From assembly GCA_903877885.1 (NCBI GenBank), contig CAIRFN010000007.1:111-64110 (forward strand): a stretch of DNA of 64,000 nucleotides. The letters run 5' to 3'. The first letter of the stretch is position 1. Each line of letters begins with the position of its first letter. The notes beneath the pieces are model-generated. The model had not been told where the DNA came from, did no database searches, and saw nothing but the letters and a program-made list of their open reading frames with translations. The position numbers and the translations under genes were made by a program. This DNA comes from an uncultured Candidatus Berkelbacteria bacterium (GTDB lineage: Bacteria > Patescibacteriota > UBA1384 > UBA12157). Below, one piece after another: positions 5,444 through 55,224 of the stretch.

Positions 5444-6322
5444 ATGAAGAAAAAGCAGAAAAAAACTTCGTTTAAACCCAGATGGTCTATTTTGGTTGTA
5501 GCACTGGCCATGATATTGTTTGGTTCGTTTTTGTTGTGGCAAAATTATCAAGCCATAAAAATTCCGATCCGGCAACTAAAACCAGAAAAAGCCATCGCTT
5601 TAAAATCAGCCGAACCGCAAATATCAGCTAGTCCAATTTCTAACCATAATAATTTAGAAAAATTCCAGGTTCCGATTTTAATGTATCATTATATTCGCGT
5701 CGCTGATCCGGCCGATACGATGGGTGTGGCTTTGTCAGTTACACCGGAAAACTTTGCTGCCCAAATGACTTGGCTTAGCCAAAACGATTACGAATCAATG
5801 AAATTGACTGATTTGGCTGACCCGGCTAAAACCGTTCTTCACAAAATCGAAGCCAAAAATAAAAAACCGATCATTATTACTTTTGATGATGGTTACGACA
5901 ATGCTTATACACAAGCCATGCCAATCCTTAAAAAACACGATTTTACTGGTACGTTTTTCATTATTCGCCATTTTGTCGGCCGACCGGAATATGCTACTCA
6001 AACTCAAATCGATCAAATGGCCAAAGCAAGTATGGAAATCGGCTCGCACACCTTGGACCATAAAGATTTGGCTAAAAATTCAATCGAAGTTGATCATCAA
6101 CAAATTTTTGATTCTAAGCTTGACGCCAACACTTTTTGCTATCCGTCAGGAAGATACACCGAAGAAACGGTTAATTTAGTTAAAGAAGCCGGCTATGTCG
6201 CGGCTGTCACTACCCGCGACGGCATCGCTAATCAAGACTCGAGTTTATTCGAATTACCCCGCGTCAGAATTAAAAATGTTGATTTAGAAACTTTTGCAAA
6301 TAGAGTTAAAGGTTTGAAGTAA
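5444..6322 (+). CDS. Polysaccharide deacetylase (NodB homology domain) with an N-terminal membrane anchor.
   Basis: Hydrophobic N-terminus, then ITFDDGYDNAY and a His-containing catalytic block (SHTLDH). Confidence 0.8.
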   Translation: MKKKQKKTSFKPRWSILVVALAMILFGSFLLWQNYQAIKIPIRQLKPEKAIALKSAEPQISASPISNHNNLEKFQVPILMYHYIRVADPADTMGVALSVTPENFAAQMTWLSQNDYESMKLTDLADPAKTVLHKIEAKNKKPIIITFDDGYDNAYTQAMPILKKHDFTGTFFIIRHFVGRPEYATQTQIDQMAKASMEIGSHTLDHKDLAKNSIEVDHQQIFDSKLDANTFCYPSGRYTEETVNLVKEAGYVAAVTTRDGIANQDSSLFELPRVRIKNVDLETFANRVKGLK

Positions 6323-44985: not shown

Positions 44986-47765
44986 GCTTTTTCTCCTAGA
45001 ATAATGTCAGCGCCTTCTACTTGGCTCACGTTCGACAAGTTAGTTTCTTTTTTCAATTCTTCAGTATATTTTTCAATTATTTCAAAATCAGCAAAATCCT
45101 TGCCGTAAAAAAGTTCTACTTTATCGCCTTGATTTAAGCCAGCCGCTTTTCGCAGATCTTGAACCACTCGTATCAAATCGCGATATCTACCTTCTACTAG
45201 CAAGTCGTTCGTGAGCTTAGTATCGAGCTCGATTTCGCTAGTAATATTTTTGTCAACTTTTATTTCTTTGACATTGATTTCATCTTTCAAAATTTCTTGC
45301 AGTTCATTTGCTAATTCGATTTTAATTGTGGCACTAGCCAAAGGTTGTCGAATTCGGATTTTGGCTTCGGCCCTAGCCGCGTGGGCTTTTTCAACTAATT
45401 CTTTAACTTTCGCCATTTGATCTAAAATTGTTTGATCAATCTCCCCTGCTTTTGGCCAGTCAGCAAGATGGACAGATTCAGCACCATCAGTTTTCAAATT
45501 TTGATAAATTGCTTCAGCTGTAAAAGGGATAAAAGGCGCGGAAAGCTTGGCCAAATTAATTAAAATATGAAATAATGTGGCATAAAAATCATTATCACGG
45601 CGTTTGCGCGATCGGCGTAAATACCAGGTTGAAAGTTCGTTAGTAAATTCACTAATTGCCCTGGCGGCATTCATAATATTATACTCATCTAAATTTTCAG
45701 TCACATCGGTTATTAGTTGATTAAACTCACTTAAAACCCATTTATCCAAAAGATTTTCGGATTTAGATTGCCAATTTGGATCGCGAAGAGCAGGTTTAAA
45801 TTCATCGATATTCGCGTAAGTAGTGAAAAAGGAATAAACATTCCAGAGTGTTAAAATAAATTGACGCAAAGTTTGTTCCATGTTTCGCGCGCTCATTCGT
45901 TTAGGCATGCCTGGATCATTGACTGTGTAGAAAAACCAACGGACCGAGTCGGCGCCGAATTGATCAATCACTTCCCATGGACTGATAATATTACCCTTGC
46001 TCTTACTCATCTTCTTACCAGTTTCATCTAAAATATGAGCATAACAAATGACATTTTTGTATGGTGATTCCTCACCTAAACAAGTTGCAATTGCCAACAA
46101 AGTGTAAAACCAACCTCGAGTTTGGTCGATTGCCTCGCAAATATAATCTGCCGGATAATTTTCCGGAAATTCTCCACTAGCAAAAGGCATTGCACCAGAG
46201 TCAAACCAAACATCAATCACTTCGGAAACTCGATGCATTGATTTGCCACAACTATCACATTTAATTTTTACCTCATCAACATATGGTTTATGCAAATCTA
46301 AATCATCGGCAAAATTTGTTATTGCTTTTTCTTTCAATTCTGTCACACTACCAATAATCTGATGTTGGCCGCACTCGCATTCCCAAATTGGCAACGGTGT
46401 CCCCCAATAACGTTCTCTTGATAATGCCCAATCCTTAATATCTTTGAGCCACTCGCCAAAACGGCCATTTTTGATATAGCCAGGAATCCAGTTAATTGTC
46501 TCATTATTGCTCAATAATTTATCGCGAAGTTGGTTCATTTTGATAAACCAAGTTTGTTTGGCAAAATAGATGAGCGGTGAATCACAGCGCCAGCAAAATG
46601 GATATTCGTGTTTAAATTTTTCTTCTTTATAAAGCAAGTGACGTTCAGCTAAATCGGCTTTGACATCAACATCAGCATCTTTAACAAATTTTTCTTTCGC
46701 AAGATCTGTTAGCATTTTACCGTCTGGCCCAACCGTCATCGGGATAGAAAAACTATTTTCTTCTTGCAAATTTTTATCATCAACACCATAAGCTGGAGCA
46801 ATATGGACAATGCCAGAACCGTCAGTATCAGTCACAAAATTAGCCGCCCAGACACGATAATCTTTAGCTGGATTTAGTTCGACAATTTTAGAAATATCAA
46901 ATAGCGGTAAATATTCTTGGCCGACCAAATCCTGTCCACTTAATTCACGAACAACGTCGTAATTAGGTTTCAAAACTTTCAACCTACTTTCGGCTAAAAT
47001 TAAATTACCTTCTTCAGTTTTTACTTCAACATATTTGAAATTTTTATTAATAGCCAAGGCGATATTGGCAGGCAATGTCCATGGTGTAGTTGTCCAAACC
47101 AGAAAATAAGTATCTTTCTTGTCTTTTAAAGCAAATTTTACATAAGCCGATTGGTCTTCAACGATTTTATAACCTTGAGCAACTTCATGACTAGATAAAG
47201 TTGTGCCACAACGTGGACAATATGGTACTACTTTAAAACCGGAATAGATTAAATCTTTATCCCAGATTTTTTTGAGCACGCCCCAAACTTTTTCAATATA
47301 GGAATTTTCGTAGGTAATATATGGCTTATTTAGATCAACCCAAAAACCGATTCGCTCGGTTAATTTCTCCCACTCGGTTTTATAAGTCCAAACACTTTCG
47401 CGACATTTTTCATTAAATTTGGCAACACCATAATCTTCGATTTGTTTTTTTCCAGAAATACCTAGTTGCTTCTCCACTTCAATTTCCACCGGCAAACCAT
47501 GAGTGTCCCAACCAGCTTTACGACTGACGTGATACCCACGCATAGTTTTGTAACGCGGAATTAAATCCTTAAACGCTCGGCCGATAACATGATGAATGCC
47601 AGGTTTACCATTGGCTGTTGGCGGACCCTCATAAAAGACGAATTTTCCCGATGGAGCGTCTTTTTCTAAGGATTTCTTAAAAATTTCATTCTTTTGCCAA
47701 AATTGCAGAATTTCTTCTTCTAATTGAGGAAAATTTTGTCTTGGATCAACTTCTTTAAAATTCAT
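44982..47765 (-). CDS. ileS: Isoleucyl-tRNA synthetase.
   Basis: PPTANGKPGIHHV (HIGH), KMSKSKGN, CP1 editing domain, C-terminal zinc Cys pairs. Confidence 0.9.
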   Translation of the reverse strand: MNFKEVDPRQNFPQLEEEILQFWQKNEIFKKSLEKDAPSGKFVFYEGPPTANGKPGIHHVIGRAFKDLIPRYKTMRGYHVSRKAGWDTHGLPVEIEVEKQLGISGKKQIEDYGVAKFNEKCRESVWTYKTEWEKLTERIGFWVDLNKPYITYENSYIEKVWGVLKKIWDKDLIYSGFKVVPYCPRCGTTLSSHEVAQGYKIVEDQSAYVKFALKDKKDTYFLVWTTTPWTLPANIALAINKNFKYVEVKTEEGNLILAESRLKVLKPNYDVVRELSGQDLVGQEYLPLFDISKIVELNPAKDYRVWAANFVTDTDGSGIVHIAPAYGVDDKNLQEENSFSIPMTVGPDGKMLTDLAKEKFVKDADVDVKADLAERHLLYKEEKFKHEYPFCWRCDSPLIYFAKQTWFIKMNQLRDKLLSNNETINWIPGYIKNGRFGEWLKDIKDWALSRERYWGTPLPIWECECGQHQIIGSVTELKEKAITNFADDLDLHKPYVDEVKIKCDSCGKSMHRVSEVIDVWFDSGAMPFASGEFPENYPADYICEAIDQTRGWFYTLLAIATCLGEESPYKNVICYAHILDETGKKMSKSKGNIISPWEVIDQFGADSVRWFFYTVNDPGMPKRMSARNMEQTLRQFILTLWNVYSFFTTYANIDEFKPALRDPNWQSKSENLLDKWVLSEFNQLITDVTENLDEYNIMNAARAISEFTNELSTWYLRRSRKRRDNDFYATLFHILINLAKLSAPFIPFTAEAIYQNLKTDGAESVHLADWPKAGEIDQTILDQMAKVKELVEKAHAARAEAKIRIRQPLASATIKIELANELQEILKDEINVKEIKVDKNITSEIELDTKLTNDLLVEGRYRDLIRVVQDLRKAAGLNQGDKVELFYGKDFADFEIIEKYTEELKKETNLSNVSQVEGADIILGEKA

Positions 47766-47766
47766 A

Positions 47767-48198
47767 TTAAACTCCGTTTTGATTATCCAGCGCTTTGTTA
47801 ACTAAAGCGTCGGCTTCTTTATTTTGTTCACGAGGAACGTAACTAAAATTAATTTGACCACCCAAATCCATCATCAACCCGCGAATTTGCCAAAACAAAG
47901 GTTTTAATCCTTCATTTTTCATTTTGTAGTTACCATTTAATTGTTCCACCACTAATTGTGAGTCCAGAAAAAAATCGATTTCCACATCGTCTTTAATATT
48001 TTCTTTGACCCACTCTAGAGCTTTAACAACGGCTGAATATTCGGCAATATTATTTGTAGCCACACCAATAAATTCGGAGATTTCTTCGACTCGATCGCCT
48101 AAATTTATAACCACACCGCAAGCGGCCGGCCCAGGGTTACCACGAGAACCACCATCAGTATGAATAATTATTTTTTGAATTTTTTCAGTTTTTTCCAT
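47767..48198 (-). CDS. rnhA: Ribonuclease HI.
   Basis: IHTDGGSRGNPGPAA and the DEDD catalytic pattern. Confidence 0.85.
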   Translation of the reverse strand: MEKTEKIQKIIIHTDGGSRGNPGPAACGVVINLGDRVEEISEFIGVATNNIAEYSAVVKALEWVKENIKDDVEIDFFLDSQLVVEQLNGNYKMKNEGLKPLFWQIRGLMMDLGGQINFSYVPREQNKEADALVNKALDNQNGV

Positions 48199-48270
48199 AT
48201 CTATATCTTACCGATTTTCCCCTACAATATCAAGACCAAAAACAATCTAAAAAAATATTGTTTAGTTCTT

Positions 48271-48306
48271 TTAACACATTATGCGCATATACGCAAAATG
48301 TGTTAA
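48271..48306. promoter_or_regulatory. Palindromic operator-like site (TTAACACATT-N16-AATGTGTTAA) between the PaaX-like gene and rnhA.
   Basis: Perfect 10-bp inverted arms with a GCGCATATACGC core. Confidence 0.5.
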
Positions 48307-48334
48307 ATAATTATTTTAGATTATATTATTTTAT

Positions 48335-48958
48335 TTATCTTTTCCTTGATCTAAGATCCTTTCCTTGATTTAAGATACCTCGATCGACAAATTCAGAGAC
48401 TAAATCAATTTCTGATTCGATAATATCGGCCACCAAATATTTAACATATAGCTCGATTTGATAGAGATCTCTTAAATAACTAATCTCGCGAGCGCAATCA
48501 TAAGGAAAAACAAAAACTGATTTTTGAATTTGATAAAAACCAATTTCCTGGAGTTTGCGTCGGAAAGCATCCCTGGTTTTACCCTTAGTATTAGGAATAT
48601 CGAAAAGTACAATTCGCCATTTTCCATCCCAACTAGTTTTGGCAACTTTAGGCATTTCTCTAGCCAAATAATTGGGCACCAAATTTTTCCCTTTTTGAGT
48701 CAACTCGACTATCTCCCTGTTATCCTTATGAAAAACTTCGATAATTTTTTCTTTTTTTAACCGGTTTAAAATAGCTCGAAAACGACTTTTATCAAATTCT
48801 CGCCAAGAAAAATAATCGTCAATCGCCTTTTGATAATTCTTACTACCATCAAAAATTTGATACATAAAATTGTGCGCATCGATCAAATAAAGCATAATTT
48901 GTCTGGTAGTCAAAATAACTTTTTTTACCATTATTTTCTTTTGCATTTTTATCTTCAA
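48335..48958 (-). CDS. PaaX-family-like transcriptional regulator (winged HTH plus a Cas2-fold middle domain).
   Basis: WDGKWRIVLFDIPNTKGKTRDAFRRKLQEIGFYQIQKSVFVFP matches the PaaX W.G.W..V.YDIPE..R..R...L...GF..LQ.SVW..P block. Flanked by palindromic operator-like sites. Confidence 0.6.
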   Translation of the reverse strand: MKIKMQKKIMVKKVILTTRQIMLYLIDAHNFMYQIFDGSKNYQKAIDDYFSWREFDKSRFRAILNRLKKEKIIEVFHKDNREIVELTQKGKNLVPNYLAREMPKVAKTSWDGKWRIVLFDIPNTKGKTRDAFRRKLQEIGFYQIQKSVFVFPYDCAREISYLRDLYQIELYVKYLVADIIESEIDLVSEFVDRGILNQGKDLRSRKR

Positions 48959-48972
48959 TTTTTATAATTTTT

Positions 48973-48997
48973 TGCGCATATACGCAAAATGTGTTAA
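48973..48997. promoter_or_regulatory. Second copy of the operator-like core (TGCGCATATACGCAAAATGTGTTAA), just upstream of the PaaX-like gene.
   Basis: A 25-bp exact match to the right half of the 48271-48306 site. Confidence 0.5.
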
Positions 48998-49184
48998 TGA
49001 ATTTTATATTTAAATACTTATAACAAATCTTTGAAATGGTCATTTATATTGAAGATGAAGAAATATTACTTTGGCGAGAGCTACCATCCGTATGAATAAT
49101 TATTTTTTCCATAAACTAATCATACGGATTTTAGAGAACTTTTTCAAGATTAAATTAGTGTTATTTTCATACTAATTCTAATTT

Positions 49185-51131
49185 TTACTGATACACTACA
49201 CCCAAATTACCATTACTGTATTTATTAATCTTAAAATTGCCATTTGTAGCTAGCCAATAGATAGGTTGATCATTAAAACTTATCCCGAAATCATAATATT
49301 GAAAGAAATAACTAAAAGAACTGGAAGTAAGATTAAAAATCTTAAATATATCCTGATCTTGACTAGTCCATGAATAAGAAGCAGTTACTGCTTTCGGTGT
49401 AAAATTATTCCACGGTACAACTCCGAGATTATCATTCAAGCCAATACTCATATTAGATGTCCGATAACCACCATTTAATCCAGTACCAGACCGAAGTGCA
49501 TCTGTGACATCACCTTTAACCGCGATCCAATACATACCGCAAGGATTAGCAACAGGTACCGTAACATCATAAGTATAAGTAACCCATCCACCATTATAAG
49601 GATCATAATTAAAATAAGTTTCTTCAGCGGTTTCGCCAGTCTTTTTCTGATAAGAACAATCTGTAGCCACTGAATCATCCCCGGCATATTGGAAACCATC
49701 TTTAGTCACATTGAAAACTTTGGACATTTGATCATTTCCTTGTCCAGCGTAATTTCTAGATATTACCACAGTAGGCGCCGAGTCAAAAAACCCGGCTGGA
49801 AAATTGACTTGGTTAATATTATCATCAATCGGACTATTAGCATGAAAACCACCAGTAATAACATTTTGAATTTGACCTTTTAGGATAATATAGTAAGCAC
49901 CACAGGTATTTGCAGGTTTACTACTTGAATCAGTACAGCCACTACCACCGGCACCATTAATTCCAAAGCTATTCGAAAAAAGATGATTAATATTTGCCAT
50001 GATACTACTTCGCGCCCAAGAGTTCACAGAGATTGTTATTGCTGACGGTTGAGCATTGCCGGTAAAAGGTTGAAATAATGTATTCCAAGCACCCGTAATC
50101 TGGTCATCATAACTTGCTAAATTAGGGTTAACAAACCCTGACCGGATTTCGGCTGTTTCGATAATTACAGGATTAGCTATCACTGCCACGCTGACCGAAG
50201 CGCTTGCCGGTGTCGTGCCTTCGGCGCCATAACAAGTAATTGAATAAGCCGTGGTAGTTGTGGGCGAAATTGCTTGAGTACCGTTTAGGCCAGAAACAAC
50301 AAAATTAACAGCTGAACAAATATTAGTATTGGTCGATGTCCAGGTTAAAGTGCTGGAACTGCCAGAAGTAATCGTAGTTGGATTAGCAACTAAAGTAACT
50401 GTTGGCGGCACTAATGGCGGTGGGATATTATTTACAGTAACATCGGCCGTTGCATCGACTAAAGCACCAGCGCTATTATAACAAGTCAGATGATAAGTCG
50501 TAGTAGGAGCAGTTGAAGGGGAAATTGGTGCAGAGCCGTTTATTGAATTGGAAGTATTAAAATCTGCGCTAGTACAATGATCAGTATTTATTGATGTCCA
50601 AATTAAAGTCGATGGCGCTCCCAAAGTAACAACACTGGGACTAGCATAGAATGATGTAATTAGTGGCGCTGGCGGCGCCACAGGTGGAGTTACTGTAATT
50701 TTTACGCTAGTATTAGCTGGGGTTGTACCATCAGCACCAATACAATTAATATAATATGTTGTATCTACAGTTGGACTCACTGGTTGTGTGCCATAAATAT
50801 TATTTGGATGAAAATCCGAATTACTACTTGTACAACTAGTAGCATTTTTGGGACTCCAAGTTAAAGTACTAGAACTACCAGAATTAATCGATGTCAGGCT
50901 AGTCGTCAAAGTCACTGTTGGATTTTGAACAATAGTTGGATTTGGTAACAACAAATCAAAATTACTATCAACTTGTTGGCCATTTTCATCCCAAAAAACA
51001 TCAACACCAATGTGGCGACCGGGATTAGTTGCGGCAAAAACTTTGGTACCAAAAGTTAGAACTAGAATAAAAATCAGTCCGGCAAATAACAAGGCTTGAA
51101 AATTGAATTTGTGTTTTGTCATATTTTGCAA
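49185..51131 (-). CDS. Large secreted protein with Ig-like repeats; candidate pilus-associated adhesin, paralog of the 52996-54789 gene.
   Basis: Signal peptide plus a shared N-terminal module TFGTKVFAATNPGRHIGVDVFWDENG. Repeated ~90-aa T/S-rich units (TLTWTS...C...GT...SPT...Y.I.C). Shared C-terminal NGNFKINKYSNG.LG..YQ. Confidence 0.6.
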   Translation of the reverse strand: MQNMTKHKFNFQALLFAGLIFILVLTFGTKVFAATNPGRHIGVDVFWDENGQQVDSNFDLLLPNPTIVQNPTVTLTTSLTSINSGSSSTLTWSPKNATSCTSSNSDFHPNNIYGTQPVSPTVDTTYYINCIGADGTTPANTSVKITVTPPVAPPAPLITSFYASPSVVTLGAPSTLIWTSINTDHCTSADFNTSNSINGSAPISPSTAPTTTYHLTCYNSAGALVDATADVTVNNIPPPLVPPTVTLVANPTTITSGSSSTLTWTSTNTNICSAVNFVVSGLNGTQAISPTTTTAYSITCYGAEGTTPASASVSVAVIANPVIIETAEIRSGFVNPNLASYDDQITGAWNTLFQPFTGNAQPSAITISVNSWARSSIMANINHLFSNSFGINGAGGSGCTDSSSKPANTCGAYYIILKGQIQNVITGGFHANSPIDDNINQVNFPAGFFDSAPTVVISRNYAGQGNDQMSKVFNVTKDGFQYAGDDSVATDCSYQKKTGETAEETYFNYDPYNGGWVTYTYDVTVPVANPCGMYWIAVKGDVTDALRSGTGLNGGYRTSNMSIGLNDNLGVVPWNNFTPKAVTASYSWTSQDQDIFKIFNLTSSSFSYFFQYYDFGISFNDQPIYWLATNGNFKINKYSNGNLGVVYQ

Positions 51132-51133
51132 AA

Positions 51134-51175
51134 CCTAGATTCCGGATCTAGGTTGCCAACCTGTCCGGAATGACA
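51134..51175. repeat. Repeat A, inverted copy.
   Basis: CCTAGATTCCGGATCTAGGTTGCCAACCTGTCCGGAATGACA, between the Ig-like protein and the vWA protein. Confidence 0.8.
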
Positions 51176-51186
51176 AAAAGGAAATT

Positions 51187-52917
51187 CTAATAATTATAGG
51201 TCACGTGGATGGTGGCGCCAGATGGTGGCACAAAGGAACCAACGAAAACAATCGCTTGTTTAAGTTCATTATAAGTCCAACCATTATCACCTTGAGCAAT
51301 AACCGTGCCATTGACCGTAACCTTGATCGTCGAAACGATTGGTTTATTCTTTAGTGTAAAACTACTCGCTAAATCAGCAATATTATTACTGATTAAATCC
51401 ATAATTTTTTGATAGTTAGCTATAGTGCCAGTGGAATTAAAAATGCTAGCAATAAGCCCGCCTGTCTCTGTGGCCGCTTGCTGATATCGATCGCTTCCGA
51501 GAGTATCACTAGTTGTACCACAATTTGGATTTACCGAATCATTAATATTTGAGGGCCTGGTTGTTCTAGATGTATCTACAACTACATCAATCACAACTTT
51601 CTTGGGATTAGCTTTTAACGCTCGAAGTCGATTAATATACGACATCGTACTGCCACAAGATTGATCATTTTCGTCAGACACAATAATCGCAATTAACCAA
51701 GCGTCAGACCTAAGAAAACCATAATTTTTATTAATGGTGGTTCCCCATTTTTGAGGCGCACTGACACTGCCATTTTCAGCAGCTTTGGCTGCCGCTACCA
51801 AACCCTGTTCGACACTTTGACTAATTCCGACCAAAACATTGCTTTTGAAATAATTAATAATATTTGACACTGTCAAATAATTAGGATCTAGAATCGGGTA
51901 AGCGCCAACAAAAAGACCATCGGTGTTTGCTTCAGCACCACCATTTTTAACTGTTGTGATTCCAATTTTATAATCAATTTTATTATTCGGATCGGTCAAA
52001 TTATTAATAAAAGCGGCGGCATTATCTTTTAAAGCATCTTGATCATCGTACATTGAACCAGAATTATCCACCACCCAAATAATATCGGCTTTGTTATTCG
52101 CAGAATTTTGAGTAAAAACTTCATCAGCCGAGTTTGGAAGCGGAGCTGGCGGAGTCGGTGGAGTCGGCGGAGTCGGCGGCGAAGGTGGCGCCGGGTTAAC
52201 CGTAATTATGGCTTCAGCGCTATTTGAAATATCATCATTATTTTTACAGGTTAAGTTATAATTGAAATTTGTAGTAGTGGCTGCTGTTGGTGAAACATCT
52301 TGATTGCCACTAGAAATAGAAGTTGATGTAAAACCAGACCCAGTTCTTGTACAACTTTTAACATCTGGTGATAAAATCCAGGTTAATTTACTTGAATTAC
52401 CAGAAATGATAGTTGTTGGATTGGCAGCCAAAGTCACTTTTGGTTCAACTGTAACGGTTATACTTTGACTAGTATGCGGATTAGTAGCTGTCGGATCGCC
52501 ATCACAATCAATCTTATAAGTTGTCTTGGCTGTTGGATTATCTGATTTATTACCGGATTCACTATTTGTTGCGGTTGAAATTGCAAAGCTACCCAAGTGA
52601 GATGAACTACAACTTTTAACATGTTTCACTGTCCAATTTAATGTTACTGAATCGCCATAGGTAATACTTGTCTGACTAGCAGTTAAAGTAATACTTGGAT
52701 CTGGAGCTGGTGGCGGATTCAAAACTGCAAAAGTGCCAGTGACAGTTTGGCTTTGATCATCCCAAGAAACTAGAACTTGAGCCCGGCGAACCAGATTCAA
52801 AGAACTAGCTTGGAAAAAACCTTCGTTTAAAAAAACGCCAACCATAATCGCTAAAACCACTGCCACCGCGGCAGTATAAAATAGAAATTTTTTGTTTTTG
52901 ATTAGTTTTTTAAACAT
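51187..52917 (-). CDS. Membrane-anchored protein with Ig-like repeats, a (PTP)n linker and a C-terminal von Willebrand factor A domain (MIDAS DNSGS); PilY1-like candidate tip adhesin.
   Basis: N-terminal TM; TLTAS/TLTAN repeats; PPSPPTPPTPPTPPAP; IIWVVDNSGSMYDD...AF..N MIDAS motif. Confidence 0.65.
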   Translation of the reverse strand: MFKKLIKNKKFLFYTAAVAVVLAIMVGVFLNEGFFQASSLNLVRRAQVLVSWDDQSQTVTGTFAVLNPPPAPDPSITLTASQTSITYGDSVTLNWTVKHVKSCSSSHLGSFAISTATNSESGNKSDNPTAKTTYKIDCDGDPTATNPHTSQSITVTVEPKVTLAANPTTIISGNSSKLTWILSPDVKSCTRTGSGFTSTSISSGNQDVSPTAATTTNFNYNLTCKNNDDISNSAEAIITVNPAPPSPPTPPTPPTPPAPLPNSADEVFTQNSANNKADIIWVVDNSGSMYDDQDALKDNAAAFINNLTDPNNKIDYKIGITTVKNGGAEANTDGLFVGAYPILDPNYLTVSNIINYFKSNVLVGISQSVEQGLVAAAKAAENGSVSAPQKWGTTINKNYGFLRSDAWLIAIIVSDENDQSCGSTMSYINRLRALKANPKKVVIDVVVDTSRTTRPSNINDSVNPNCGTTSDTLGSDRYQQAATETGGLIASIFNSTGTIANYQKIMDLISNNIADLASSFTLKNKPIVSTIKVTVNGTVIAQGDNGWTYNELKQAIVFVGSFVPPSGATIHVTYNY

Positions 52918-52948
52918 ATTTTTTTACTCCTCGAACATTTTATGAAAT

Positions 52949-52988
52949 CTGGATTCCAGATCCTGATGCCATCCGGTCTGGAATGACA
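52949..52988. repeat. Repeat A, inverted copy.
   Basis: CTGGATTCCAGATCCTGATGCCATCCGGTCTGGAATGACA. Confidence 0.8.
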
Positions 52989-52995
52989 AGACAGA

Positions 52996-54789
52996 TTACT
53001 GATATGTTGTGCCAAGGCTACCATTTGAATATTTATTAATTTTAAAATTACCATTGGCGCCCACCCAGAAAAATGGTCTCGTGGTCGATGAACCAAAACA
53101 ATAAACTCTTGGGGAAAATTGAAAACTATTCTGGACAATATTAAAAATACTATAAATATCTTGTTGGCCATCAATATAACCCGTGCTGCCAAAAGCAGCG
53201 ACAATCGCTTTAAGATTCGTGGCCGAGCTGATATTTGTTGTGCCTGTAGCATTGTCACCATATGGACTAGCGCCGCAATCTTCTCCTGTACCGGAACGAA
53301 TAGCATCAGTAACATTTCCTTTAATTGCAATCCAATGAACACCACACCAGTTGGCGGCTGAATTGCCATTCAAATCTAAACTGGAAGTATCATCACAGTC
53401 AGTCGTATAATAACAAGGATTATTAACACCATCTTCAACGCATTCAAGATGCGAAGCTACTCCGGCAGTTTGAATATATGTCAAATCGCCAGTATATTGA
53501 AAACCATCTTTAGTAATATTCATCACCATTGGCATTTGCTCACTTTGTTCAAACCAGTTTCTCGAAAGAATAACTGCGGTCGGCGCAGTTGTGAAAGAAC
53601 CGGCTGGAAAATTAACTTGATTAATAGTTTTATTCGGGTCAGAACTAATATTGTAATTTGCATGAAAACCGCCAGTAATTACATCTTTGACTTGACCAGT
53701 TAGGCCGATGTAATAAACACCGCATCGATTCGTGGTTGTAGTTACACCTCTGGCGGTTCTAACGATATCTGGGTAACCAGTGGATGAATCTTTACAGCCA
53801 TCGATTTGAGTTGTGCCATCGCCAGAATAGCTAAAAGAGTTTGATGTCAGACTGTGCGCTTTTGGCATTTGATCGTTGCCACCCCAAAAGTTACGAGCAA
53901 TAACTAAAGCTGACGGATTTCCAAGCGTAAATGGTTTAAAAGTAGCTTTAAAATTGTCTGTGCCGGTATTGGCAATAAACCCAGAACGGATTTCGGCCGT
54001 GCCCTCGATGGTTGGCGTCGGAGTAGGAGGAGAAGCAACAGTAATGCTAACTTGTTTGTAAGCTGATACTGTTTTTGTAGCATCATAACATCTGATTTTA
54101 TAAACCGTATCTGTCGTTGGATGAACAATCGCACTACCATTCAAGCCTGGATTATAACCCGTACCTTGATCGTCACAACTAGTTGCGTTAGTTGAAGTCC
54201 AAACCAAAGTTGCTGTTTCGCCAGAGTTGATAGTCGCACTCGACAGACCATTAACAGTTAAAGTTGTGTCAAGTATTGAAACGGTTACACTAGTAGTAGC
54301 TGGTGGTGTACCCGTCGCACCGACACAATTTATATTATAAGTTGTAGTAGTTGCAATTGGATGAACTATTGCCGAACCACTGGTGCTTATTGGATTTATA
54401 TAATTAGGATCAGTATTAATGGTTGTACAACTGTTAGCATGTGTCGATGACCAAGTCAGAATCGCAGACCCTTGAGAATTGATAATTGCGCTCGACGAAC
54501 CATTTACTGTTAAAGTAACTATCGGAGCCAAAACTACTGGTAAAGGATTATCCGGTGTAGTATCCGAAGGCGGTTCTGCCGGAGGATTAACAATAATATT
54601 CTGGTTTGGTAATAACAGATCGAAATTACTATCGACTGTGATGCCATTTTCGTCCCAAAAAACATCGACACCGATATGGCGGCCAGGATTAGTTGCGGCA
54701 AAAACTTTGGTACCAAAAGTTAGGACTAATACGAAAATAATTAGTGAAAATAACAAGGATTGAGAATTGAATTGTCTTAATTTCTTCAT
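52996..54789 (-). CDS. Large secreted protein with Ig-like repeats; paralog of the 49185-51131 gene.
   Basis: Identical N-terminal module (TFGTKVFAATNPGRHIGVDVFWDENG) and C-terminal module (ANGNFKINKYSNGSLGTTYQ). Confidence 0.6.
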   Translation of the reverse strand: MKKLRQFNSQSLLFSLIIFVLVLTFGTKVFAATNPGRHIGVDVFWDENGITVDSNFDLLLPNQNIIVNPPAEPPSDTTPDNPLPVVLAPIVTLTVNGSSSAIINSQGSAILTWSSTHANSCTTINTDPNYINPISTSGSAIVHPIATTTTYNINCVGATGTPPATTSVTVSILDTTLTVNGLSSATINSGETATLVWTSTNATSCDDQGTGYNPGLNGSAIVHPTTDTVYKIRCYDATKTVSAYKQVSITVASPPTPTPTIEGTAEIRSGFIANTGTDNFKATFKPFTLGNPSALVIARNFWGGNDQMPKAHSLTSNSFSYSGDGTTQIDGCKDSSTGYPDIVRTARGVTTTTNRCGVYYIGLTGQVKDVITGGFHANYNISSDPNKTINQVNFPAGSFTTAPTAVILSRNWFEQSEQMPMVMNITKDGFQYTGDLTYIQTAGVASHLECVEDGVNNPCYYTTDCDDTSSLDLNGNSAANWCGVHWIAIKGNVTDAIRSGTGEDCGASPYGDNATGTTNISSATNLKAIVAAFGSTGYIDGQQDIYSIFNIVQNSFQFSPRVYCFGSSTTRPFFWVGANGNFKINKYSNGSLGTTYQ

Positions 54790-54807: not shown

Positions 54808-55224
54808 TTAATCTGCAATTTTAATAGTTCGTCTAAAATCTTTTTTGTCGATAGTTATAACATCTTCATTAGGCATATTTGCACAAACTTTTTGATCAGT
54901 GGACCAATTACCAGCATCATCTTTACAGCGATATAATGATTGATCTGCTATATGAATATAATAAATTCCGGCAGCGCAAGTATCTAAATTTGGACAATTA
55001 CCAGTAGTAATATCTGGAGCTCCGACGGTTCTTTGCTGGTCAGCCATAGATTTAACAATGTTCATCCCCTCTTGAGCAATGCCATTGGCTTGAACTTTGT
55101 ATTTGTCTTGTGCGCCAAATTTAATATTGCCGGTTTCCACGGCAACAAAGGCAATAATTACGATGATAAAAATCACCATAGCGATTAGGACTTCGATTAG
55201 GGTGAACGCTCGTTTAGTTTTCAT
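54808..55224 (-). CDS. Type IV pilin-like (minor pilin/pseudopilin) with a prepilin leader.
   Basis: MKTKRAFTLIEVLIAMVIF: a class III signal with G/A-FTLIE and Glu at +5. Confidence 0.75.
   Translation of the reverse strand: MKTKRAFTLIEVLIAMVIFIIVIIAFVAVETGNIKFGAQDKYKVQANGIAQEGMNIVKSMADQQRTVGAPDITTGNCPNLDTCAAGIYYIHIADQSLYRCKDDAGNWSTDQKVCANMPNEDVITIDKKDFRRTIKIAD

Follow-up and report, generated by a model that had tools for sequence, protein, structure and literature searches.

The regulator PaaX of Escherichia coli and Pseudomonas, which responds to phenylacetyl-CoA (PDB entries 8A39 and 3L09), is a protein of about 310 amino acids (aa) in which a winged-helix N-terminal domain is followed by a Cas2-like central domain, through which it dimerises, and by a C-terminal effector-binding domain. 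Its binding site is an inverted repeat with halves set far apart, TGATTC-N27-GAATCA, and it acts as a repressor of its own promoter (PMC9493321). Here, we consider the gene for a shorter relative, which we call mini-PaaX, in a 64,000-nucleotide stretch of contig CAIRFN010000007.1; this whole stretch is referred to as the window. Mini-PaaX proteins, of about 190 aa, share the first two domains of PaaX, including the one used for dimerisation, and lack the third. The gene lies between two copies of a palindrome, one upstream (U) and one downstream (D). Compared with the PaaX operator the mini-PaaX site has a conserved GC-rich centre, is fully self-complementary and recurs after the stop codon of the gene.

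Other described systems resemble parts of this arrangement. The ferredoxin-like fold of the second domain and its motifs [FY]D[IV] and Q.SVF are shared with the Cas2/VapD superfamily, and the position of the gene between two palindromic 'repeats' of CRISPR-repeat length recalls CRISPR loci. However, CRISPR Cas2 is a stand-alone protein of about 90–100 aa encoded beside cas1 and an array, whereas in mini-PaaX the domain is fused to a winged helix-turn-helix (wHTH) domain; neither cas1 nor a CRISPR array turned up among the neighbours, which are housekeeping genes, the repeats number only two in 64 kb, about 690 bp apart, and nothing links the gene to adaptation. A role as a component of a defence system was considered and rejected, PADLOC yielding weak Cas2 matches only. 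The N-terminal winged helix is like those of AspA of pNOB8 and of TubR, the palindromic sites of which also adjoin their own genes; in contrast to these systems, no partition ATPase or tubulin partner gene is found near mini-PaaX. RTP of Bacillus subtilis is likewise an autoregulating, site-specific winged-helix protein with palindromic sites beside its own gene. Lastly, repetitive extragenic palindromic (REP) and REPIN elements reportedly occur with transposase-like RAYT genes, and are said to have been treated by Nunvar in 2010, by Bertels and Rainey in 2011 and by Ton-Hoang in 2012. The likeness here is a gene flanked on both sides by cognate palindromes, in the window and family-wide, with several families of genes and elements per genome. 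A literature search combining PaaX with Cas2, palindromes or Patescibacteria gave a review on PaaX as the only relevant item and no description of the present layout.

The three components of the locus are as follows.

48335..48946 (minus strand): regulator gene, mini-PaaX; start at ATG 48946, alternative ATG 48931
48271..48307 (no strand assigned): downstream site D, a complete 37-bp composite palindrome in which outer arms of 10 bp and spacers that do not pair enclose the GC-rich core TGCGCATATACGCA
48961..48997 (no strand assigned): upstream site U, of which 25 nucleotides (nt; 48973–48997) are identical to the core of D plus one arm

The open reading frame (ORF) of the regulator covers 48335..48958 on the minus strand, with 207 codons when counted from a TTG. 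Starts at ATG 48946 (203 aa) or ATG 48931 (198 aa) are likelier and the TTG is the least favoured; an identical database protein (P0001) has 198 aa, i.e. it begins at ATG 48931. The encoded protein includes the block WDGKWRIVLFDIPN...LQEIGFYQIQKSVFVFP, also written WDGKWRIVLFDIPN...QKSVFVFPYDC. A preliminary description of the locus had called the protein PaaX-like and this is upheld. Pfam PF20803 (PaaX_M, the central Cas2-like domain of PaaX) matches residues 104–177 with an E value of 2.6e-21 (76 bits against a cut-off of 24), and the top PDB match of the whole chain, as modelled by AlphaFold2 from 30 family sequences with a mean pLDDT of 85, is E. coli PaaX (8A39, E value 2.8e-5), with further matches to Rv0674 and Jannaschia PaaX (3KFW, 3L09). 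The Cas2 profiles PF09827 (CRISPR_Cas2; 24.1 bits, cut-off 23.8) and NCBIfam TIGR01573 (25.4 bits, cut-off 24.5) also match, in both cases with only the N-terminal half covered. The PaaX equivalog profile TIGR02277 scores 42.8 bits, far below its cut-off of 264.55, over profile positions 32–152 of 279. The chain ends some 25 residues past the Cas2-like domain and the PaaX effector-binding domain is absent. The protein is thus a two-domain mini-PaaX, winged helix plus Cas2-like, without the C-terminal effector domain, and not a full PaaX.

The N-terminal half of the model has the helix–strand topology of the winged helices of MarR, TubR and AspA, and Foldseek matches the C-terminal half to the Cas2 structures 5ZYF, 3EXC and 2IVY. 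At the sequence level the N-domain matches to AspA and MarR are weak (E values of about 0.01–0.1), the Pfam N-domain of PaaX gives no match at E ≤ 0.01, and a sequence search of the Cas2-like domain alone against the PDB returned none. PaaX_M and Cas2 are the only domains detected by profile searches, and no HUH/Y1, DDE, serine or tyrosine recombinase domain was found with Pfam. The Cas2 hallmark motifs [FY]D[IV] and Q.S[VI][FWY] are nearly invariant in the family, the former, with the conserved beta1 Asp of the Cas2 fold, being present in 81 of 84 members. We also note a 19-nt tandem duplication (ATCTTTTCCTTGATCTAAG twice, 48337–48374) inside the 3' end of the gene, which shifts the frame to give the regulator its basic tail ...LNQGKDLRSRKR.

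D begins 28 nt past the stop codon of the regulator. It had been reported as a perfect palindrome 3' of the gene, and its arms are indeed exact: TTAACACATT (48271–48280) is followed after 16 nt by AATGTGTTAA (48297–48306), and the core TGCGCATATACGCA forms a nested near-palindrome. The second core copy reported upstream of the gene is equally exact. The 25-mer TGCGCATATACGCAAAATGTGTTAA recurs at 48973–48997, with 0 matches in 100 shuffles, and its sole other match is the opposite arm of the palindrome itself. The outer arm of U on the start-proximal side is degenerate or lost, and U and D are 84% identical over 44 nt. U lies 26 nt from ATG 48946 and 41 nt from ATG 48931; the 15 bp previously given as its distance from the start holds for the TTG only. 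Folded as single-stranded DNA, D has an energy of −14.2 kcal/mol (z = −6.6 against shuffles) and U one of −7.9 kcal/mol (z = −2.1), which is not outstanding. A search for the palindrome had been proposed as a way to define a regulon; in the 64 kb window it leads to U and D alone, there being no further copies of the core (with up to two mismatches) or of arm plus core edge.

Some simple origins were rejected. A chance repeat does not account for an exact 25-nt copy with 0 expected matches in a layout that is kept in relatives, nor does a simple tandem duplication account for palindrome copies 691 nt apart when the two copies of the rnhA 5' end described below are 932 nt apart. An intrinsic terminator was dismissed on the grounds that a terminator scan calls neither U nor D and that D sites in the family lack a T-run, and a known RNA family on the grounds that Rfam gives no match at E ≤ 1 in 47400–49900.

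The named relatives, together with the neighbouring RNase H, indicate that the sequence is from the Candidate Phyla Radiation (CPR/Patescibacteria), probably near Berkelbacteria. Two-domain proteins of this kind are characteristic of CPR/Patescibacteria. In three related loci (L001, L004 and L005) the regulator is 77, 59 and 59% identical to that of the window, and the gene order is the same: pilin-like and large unknown genes, regulator, rnhA, ileS and ftsW. In all three, one palindrome precedes the regulator and another separates it from rnhA. The GC-rich centre is retained (TGCGTATATGCGCA, TGCTCTCGAGCGCA and TGCGCACGTGCGCA, respectively), and the outer arms are changed yet still inverted, for example CCGACAA...TTGTCGG in L004. 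In this clade Shine–Dalgarno motifs are present, and U is preceded by a promoter-like element and followed by the ribosome-binding site. Two further relatives (L087 and L088), and gene maps of the contigs that encode P0128 and P0134, have matching synteny without the regulator and without the palindromes. The RNase H of these relatives is 66–72% identical to that of the window, i.e. as close as that of the regulator-bearing relatives. Since the gene and the palindromes are missing alike, presence or absence applies to the whole site–gene–site block.

The layout is real and extends to a site–gene–site architecture in nearly all of the family. In species-representative genomes at least 579 relatives were detected, every one of them in candidate-phyla bacteria; 80 loci were kept. 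A profile search gave 994 clusters at 50% identity with E ≤ 1e-30; several paralogues per genome are common. When the 250 nt upstream of each gene were compared with the 300 nt downstream in diverse CPR species, a match of at least 30 bits was obtained in 52 of 78 loci and in none of 78 mismatched pairs. With everything downstream searched, the best match to the upstream region mostly begins −5 to +140 nt from the stop codon. Palindromes with short loops and scores of at least 12 occur within 220 nt upstream in 31 of 81 loci and downstream in 33 of 80, against a background of 0.017 per 220 nt. This is an enrichment of about 25-fold at PaaX_M genes, and the two flanks of one gene carry the same type. 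The co-conservation of palindrome and regulator therefore holds both for the relatives at 77–59% identity and for the family, contrary to the case of a palindrome peculiar to this locus that the preliminary description had named as speaking against its proposal.

Sites in the family are about 40 bp long, with centres such as ACGATCGT, GCTATAGC, GCGATCGC and GCGATAGC/GCTATCGC. Their arms vary between loci, and between paralogues of one genome, with self-complementarity kept; site types differ among the paralogues of a genome and are retained, with part of the arms, among orthologues. The median gap from U to the start codon is 33 nt and that from the stop codon to D is 20 nt. A −10-like hexamer peaks 30–34 nt 3' of the centre of U (14 of 43, compared with five of 50 for D). 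In 23 of 82 loci such a hexamer is followed, after exactly 6 nt, by the start codon, and Shine–Dalgarno-like motifs are present in only five of 82. From this −10 spacing and the rarity of Shine–Dalgarno motifs most family genes appear to be leaderless, with U over the −35 region and upstream of it. The asymmetric centres GATA and TATC show no strand bias and therefore fit a symmetric dimer that recognises duplex DNA. The relative orientation of U and D is mixed (nine direct, four inverted, 16 ambiguous). Class palindromes were also seen immediately past the stop codons of other genes, including a uvrB-like one (L035 5559–5596, L079 5749–5780 and L068 5787–5832), and in L068 a second copy of the regulator palindrome lies 2.25 kb downstream, bracketing the regulator and two further ORFs.

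Copies also exist away from the regulator genes. A scan of metagenome contigs with the motif of one related subfamily, CAGCAAW-N6-CKATMG-N6-WTTGCTG, yielded 104 matches. Among them, 29 are located beside PaaX_M genes (14 before, 15 after) and 44 are true palindromes with no PaaX_M gene within 250 nt, and mostly none across the fetched locus. These orphans are intergenic, never within ORFs, and their neighbours are co-directional in 17 cases, convergent in five and divergent in two. The same contigs contain other recurrent palindrome types, with a frequency of about one per 20–30 kb. Over all of the sequence searched, 53 of 85 non-redundant perfect class palindromes flank a PaaX_M gene. L137 and L028 share an orthologous junction that holds 8 nt in L028 and, in L137, an insert of 130 nt that includes two palindromes; the edges of this insert show a possible direct repeat of 9–10 nt, TAG(A)GTCTTC. 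Doublets of two long palindrome types (CAGCAAT... and ATCTACTTATAC..GTACTATAGTAC...) were noticed at unrelated loci (L137 1434–1568, L104 7528–7612 and L127 6857–6904). An orthologous pair of orphans, L146 821–879 and L175 4738–4798, differs by a compensatory A-T/T-A swap (AGAACGC..GCGTTCT versus AGTACGC..GCGTACT). No locus was found to be polymorphic between a solo site and a full cassette, the difference between L162 and L104 being an unrelated gene of 269 aa.

In the reading that we favour, and to which we would give an even chance, a mini-PaaX dimer binds its own palindromes and autoregulates, D being a second operator of the same module. The two palindromes would be the recognition sites of the encoded protein, so that site, gene and site are inherited, gained and lost as one block. 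The dimer would sit on the dyad, the conserved GC-rich centre probably being read by a conserved part of the protein and the fast-evolving arms being paired with the fast-evolving N-terminal domain. U is placed over and upstream of the −35 element of a leaderless promoter in most family members, and in the clade of the window between a promoter and the ribosome-binding site; because U would overlap the promoter of the gene, its occupancy may feed back on transcription of the regulator. Repression is to be expected by analogy with PaaX at its Px promoter. D might allow binding that is cooperative or involves looping, or might hinder read-through, rather than serve as a dedicated rnhA/ileS operator. 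Observed here are the domain architecture, the sites and their geometry, the conservation of the sites along with the gene, and the polymorphism for presence or absence; binding to the palindromes, the sign of regulation and the role of D are what we infer.

Several observations weigh against this reading. Comparison of the U and D copies within loci, up to 17 nt from the centre, shows 51 compensatory double changes and 47 single breaks, and a dimeric protein that binds duplex DNA does not need compensatory variation between centre and arms. Orphan copies show a similar compensatory pattern; they are perfect palindromes of 50–70 bp with N6 segments that are variable yet complementary, and for five of 24 the adjoining genes are convergent, a position that has no promoter. 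Arm identity amounts to only 0.42 where the N-domain is 60–80% identical (Spearman coefficient 0.09), i.e. the arms far outpace the protein, and Mantel-type tests for coevolution of protein and site, in which partial correlations were computed for the N- and C-domains, gave a signal too weak to assign the arms to the wHTH domain. In the window itself one arm of U is missing and a promoter for the regulator is only tentatively assigned. Finally, we know of no established precedent among autoregulators for a second operator right after the stop codon, and the role proposed for D is a guess. Since the arms stay complementary and the orphans are perfect palindromes, formation of a hairpin or cruciform matters. 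This could come about by selection or by template-switch 'correction' of quasipalindromes, a process that can produce perfect symmetry with no need for a dedicated protein. According to a preprint, template switching reportedly creates hairpins.

A rival reading is a selfish system of the REP/RAYT kind, with the palindromes as dispersed hairpin elements and the wHTH–Cas2-like protein as a factor that binds or processes their ends, a nuclease-type mobiliser or a maintenance factor and only secondarily, if at all, a regulator of transcription. We consider this unlikely but deserving of a hearing. The likeness in bracketing, in orphan copies and in the multiple families of gene and palindrome per genome is close. 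Each gene is bracketed by its own palindrome type, with several such pairs of paralogue and type per genome; orphans of the same type (in the one related subfamily) are extragenic, never in ORFs, with about one further class palindrome per 20–30 kb; they are indel-polymorphic between relatives, as in L137 versus L028, and form doublets at unrelated loci; hairpin potential is kept by compensatory change; the Cas2 motifs are nearly invariant; relatives differ in whether they have the module at one locus; and remnants of the 5' end of the downstream gene lie upstream of it in the window, L005 and L018. On the other hand, where RAYT proteins have the HUH/Y1 fold (as in IS200/IS605 TnpA), the matches of mini-PaaX are to PaaX, Cas2 and wHTH proteins, no DDE or serine/tyrosine recombinase domain is present either, and Cas2-fold proteins are not known to transpose DNA. 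Palindrome copies number tens rather than the hundreds of REP elements, with none of the window's type beyond the two flanking sites in 64 kb, and the orientation of the flanking copies is mixed. Orthologues at 70–77% identity often retain their neighbours, and inheritance is therefore mainly vertical. The remnants can be explained by homology-anchored recombination of incoming DNA, and the symmetry by template-switch correction. A CPR analogue of REPIN/RAYT, of a kind not recognised before and with a winged-helix plus Cas2-like protein in place of an HUH transposase, in which each paralogue would recognise a hairpin- or cruciform-forming palindrome family of its own, sit between two of its members and produce, spread or preserve orphans across the genome, strikes us as a doubtful proposition. 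Alternatively, the palindromes might be generic structural elements (cruciform-prone insulators or terminators, or sites of another host factor) that tend to flank horizontally acquired genes and go unrecognised by the helix-turn-helix protein. Orphans without a nearby PaaX_M gene and the weak relation of arm similarity to protein would suit this idea, but the 25-fold enrichment at PaaX_M genes, the shared type of the two flanks, the different types of paralogues in one genome and the 53 of 85 perfect class palindromes that flank a PaaX_M gene make it very unlikely.

The preliminary description had coupled autoregulation with control of a neighbouring operon. Autoregulation is plausible in view of the position of U over the −35 region family-wide; that the dimer also controls the rnhA–ileS operon, the pilus/adhesin operon or both is, we believe, highly improbable. 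The features concerned are the following.

47767..48198 (minus strand): rnhA (RNase HI family), next gene downstream; outside the module
48205..48233 (minus strand): rnhA core promoter, TTGATA-17-TAAGAT, 6 nt, ATG (leaderless); between D and rnhA

D is indeed situated between regulator gene and rnhA, and its own sequence matches TTAACA-17-CATAAT in the direction of rnhA; the downstream neighbour is ileS in seven family loci and rnhA in four, and in L018 a consensus promoter for secA abuts D. D had been placed in the rnhA/ileS promoter region, however, and it precedes the core promoter, with 37 nt between its edge and the −35 hexamer. It is anchored to the stop codon of the regulator and not to that promoter, the distance from the centre of the site to the rnhA start being 74 nt in L001, 85 nt in L004 and 91 nt in the window. 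The leaderless rnhA promoter is retained, with the synteny, in relatives that have neither regulator nor palindromes (e.g. L087 1624–1661). A site past the stop codon recurs throughout the family regardless of the gene that follows; the neighbours are diverse, 177 of 294 being singletons, and about 30% of the downstream ones are convergent. The proposed link to the pilus/adhesin genes falls for similar reasons, as L088 has the pilin operon and no regulator and the family occurs in many unrelated contexts. The module is self-contained, and a function as a switch for the neighbouring rnhA/ileS or pilus genes is not supported. Least probable of all is that the palindromes work as RNA hairpins, i.e. 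as 5' or 3' stabilisers, processing sites or protein-dependent terminators bound or cut by an RRM-like Cas2-fold protein. D sites and many orphans are in 3' untranslated positions, the window core has a sense-strand mismatch compatible with G-U pairing in both copies, and some orphans have A-tract/T-tract flanks that resemble bidirectional terminators. An RNA-level function is nevertheless unlikely because the U sites are upstream of leaderless start sites and so outside the gene's own mRNA, because the GATA/TATC loops have no strand preference, and because the excess of G:T over A:C mismatches on the sense strand is modest and confined to D (18 versus five; 11 versus ten at U). In addition, stem mismatches are mostly of the transversion type (88 of 132), D sites mostly lack a T-run (at least five T in the next 8 nt at only four of 50) and no Rfam family matches.

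CPR bacteria have very few recognisable regulators and their gene control is hardly known at all, and the mini-PaaX family is large. Each member brings with it a prediction of its own DNA target, namely the palindromes that flank the gene, such that binding specificity, autoregulation and any regulon are directly testable from sequence. The conserved centre, the fast-changing but complementary arms, the copy after the stop codon and the orphans that come and go suggest a possible role for a Cas2 fold, related to DNA structure, outside CRISPR, and bear on the relationship between Cas2 and PaaX. If the palindromes were indeed a REPIN/RAYT-like system, this would be a case of the Cas2 fold acting on palindromic repeats outside CRISPR.

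The DNA upstream of U contains a partial copy of the start of rnhA.

49119..49147 (minus strand): promoter-like by consensus match only, TTGAAA-17-TATGAT, 6 nt, ATG; a copy of the leaderless rnhA promoter
49044..49112 (minus strand): remnant of the rnhA 5' end, a 22-codon ORF encoding MEKIIIHTDGSSRQSNISSSSI and then a stop codon; upstream of the regulator and U

Together, the duplicated rnhA promoter and first 13 codons make up a 22-codon leaderless mini-ORF (49044–49147, minus strand). Bases 49075–49108 are 91% identical to the true rnhA 5' end at 48143–48176, and the promoter part is about 64% identical. The element at 49119..49147 is a candidate promoter for the regulator transcript, in which case U would be in the transcribed leader; promoter-like sites in the region are not above chance overall (ten found, 8.6 expected). 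L005 has a similar rnhA remnant, and L018, an unrelated family member, has a remnant of the first 14 codons of the downstream secA with the ATG mutated to TAG. Among about 51 testable loci, such remnants occur only in these three, namely the window, L005 and L018. The idea that long target-site duplications are general in the family was thus rejected, a match in L026 being the site itself. The remnants point to entry of the module by recombination anchored in the downstream gene, which could have been homology-facilitated illegitimate recombination or a Campbell-type event; transposition encoded by the element is not required.

The 5' end of rnhA seems to be a hot spot for rearrangement. In L004 an insertion of about 95 nt (5711–5810) directly follows the first 13 nt of the gene; within it ATGCAAACACTTA is duplicated and an internal repeat, TATAGACAAACAA, occurs twice. 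In the window rnhA has an A-rich expansion of 18 nt (six codons, TEKIQK) after codon 3, at about 48163–48190, which is absent from the remnant copy and from L087 and L088. A small gene of the 23S_rRNA_IVP or bAvd-like type lies near or between rnhA and ileS in some relatives (L088 479–841 and the P0134 contig). Within about 8 kb of the regulator in the window the neighbours seen are rnhA, ileS, ftsW, nusG, pilin-like genes and genes for large unknown proteins, with no paa catabolic genes among them. U had been described as just downstream of the last adhesin gene; about 187 nt separate the two, including the remnant copy of the rnhA promoter and first 13 codons. The 'adhesin' genes themselves (49185–54789, minus strand) match no Pfam family, and the product of one of them (51187..52917) shows weak similarity to CglD and to MIDAS/VWA adhesins. 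Beyond them, at 54808..55224, lies a gene for a pilin-like N_methyl protein.

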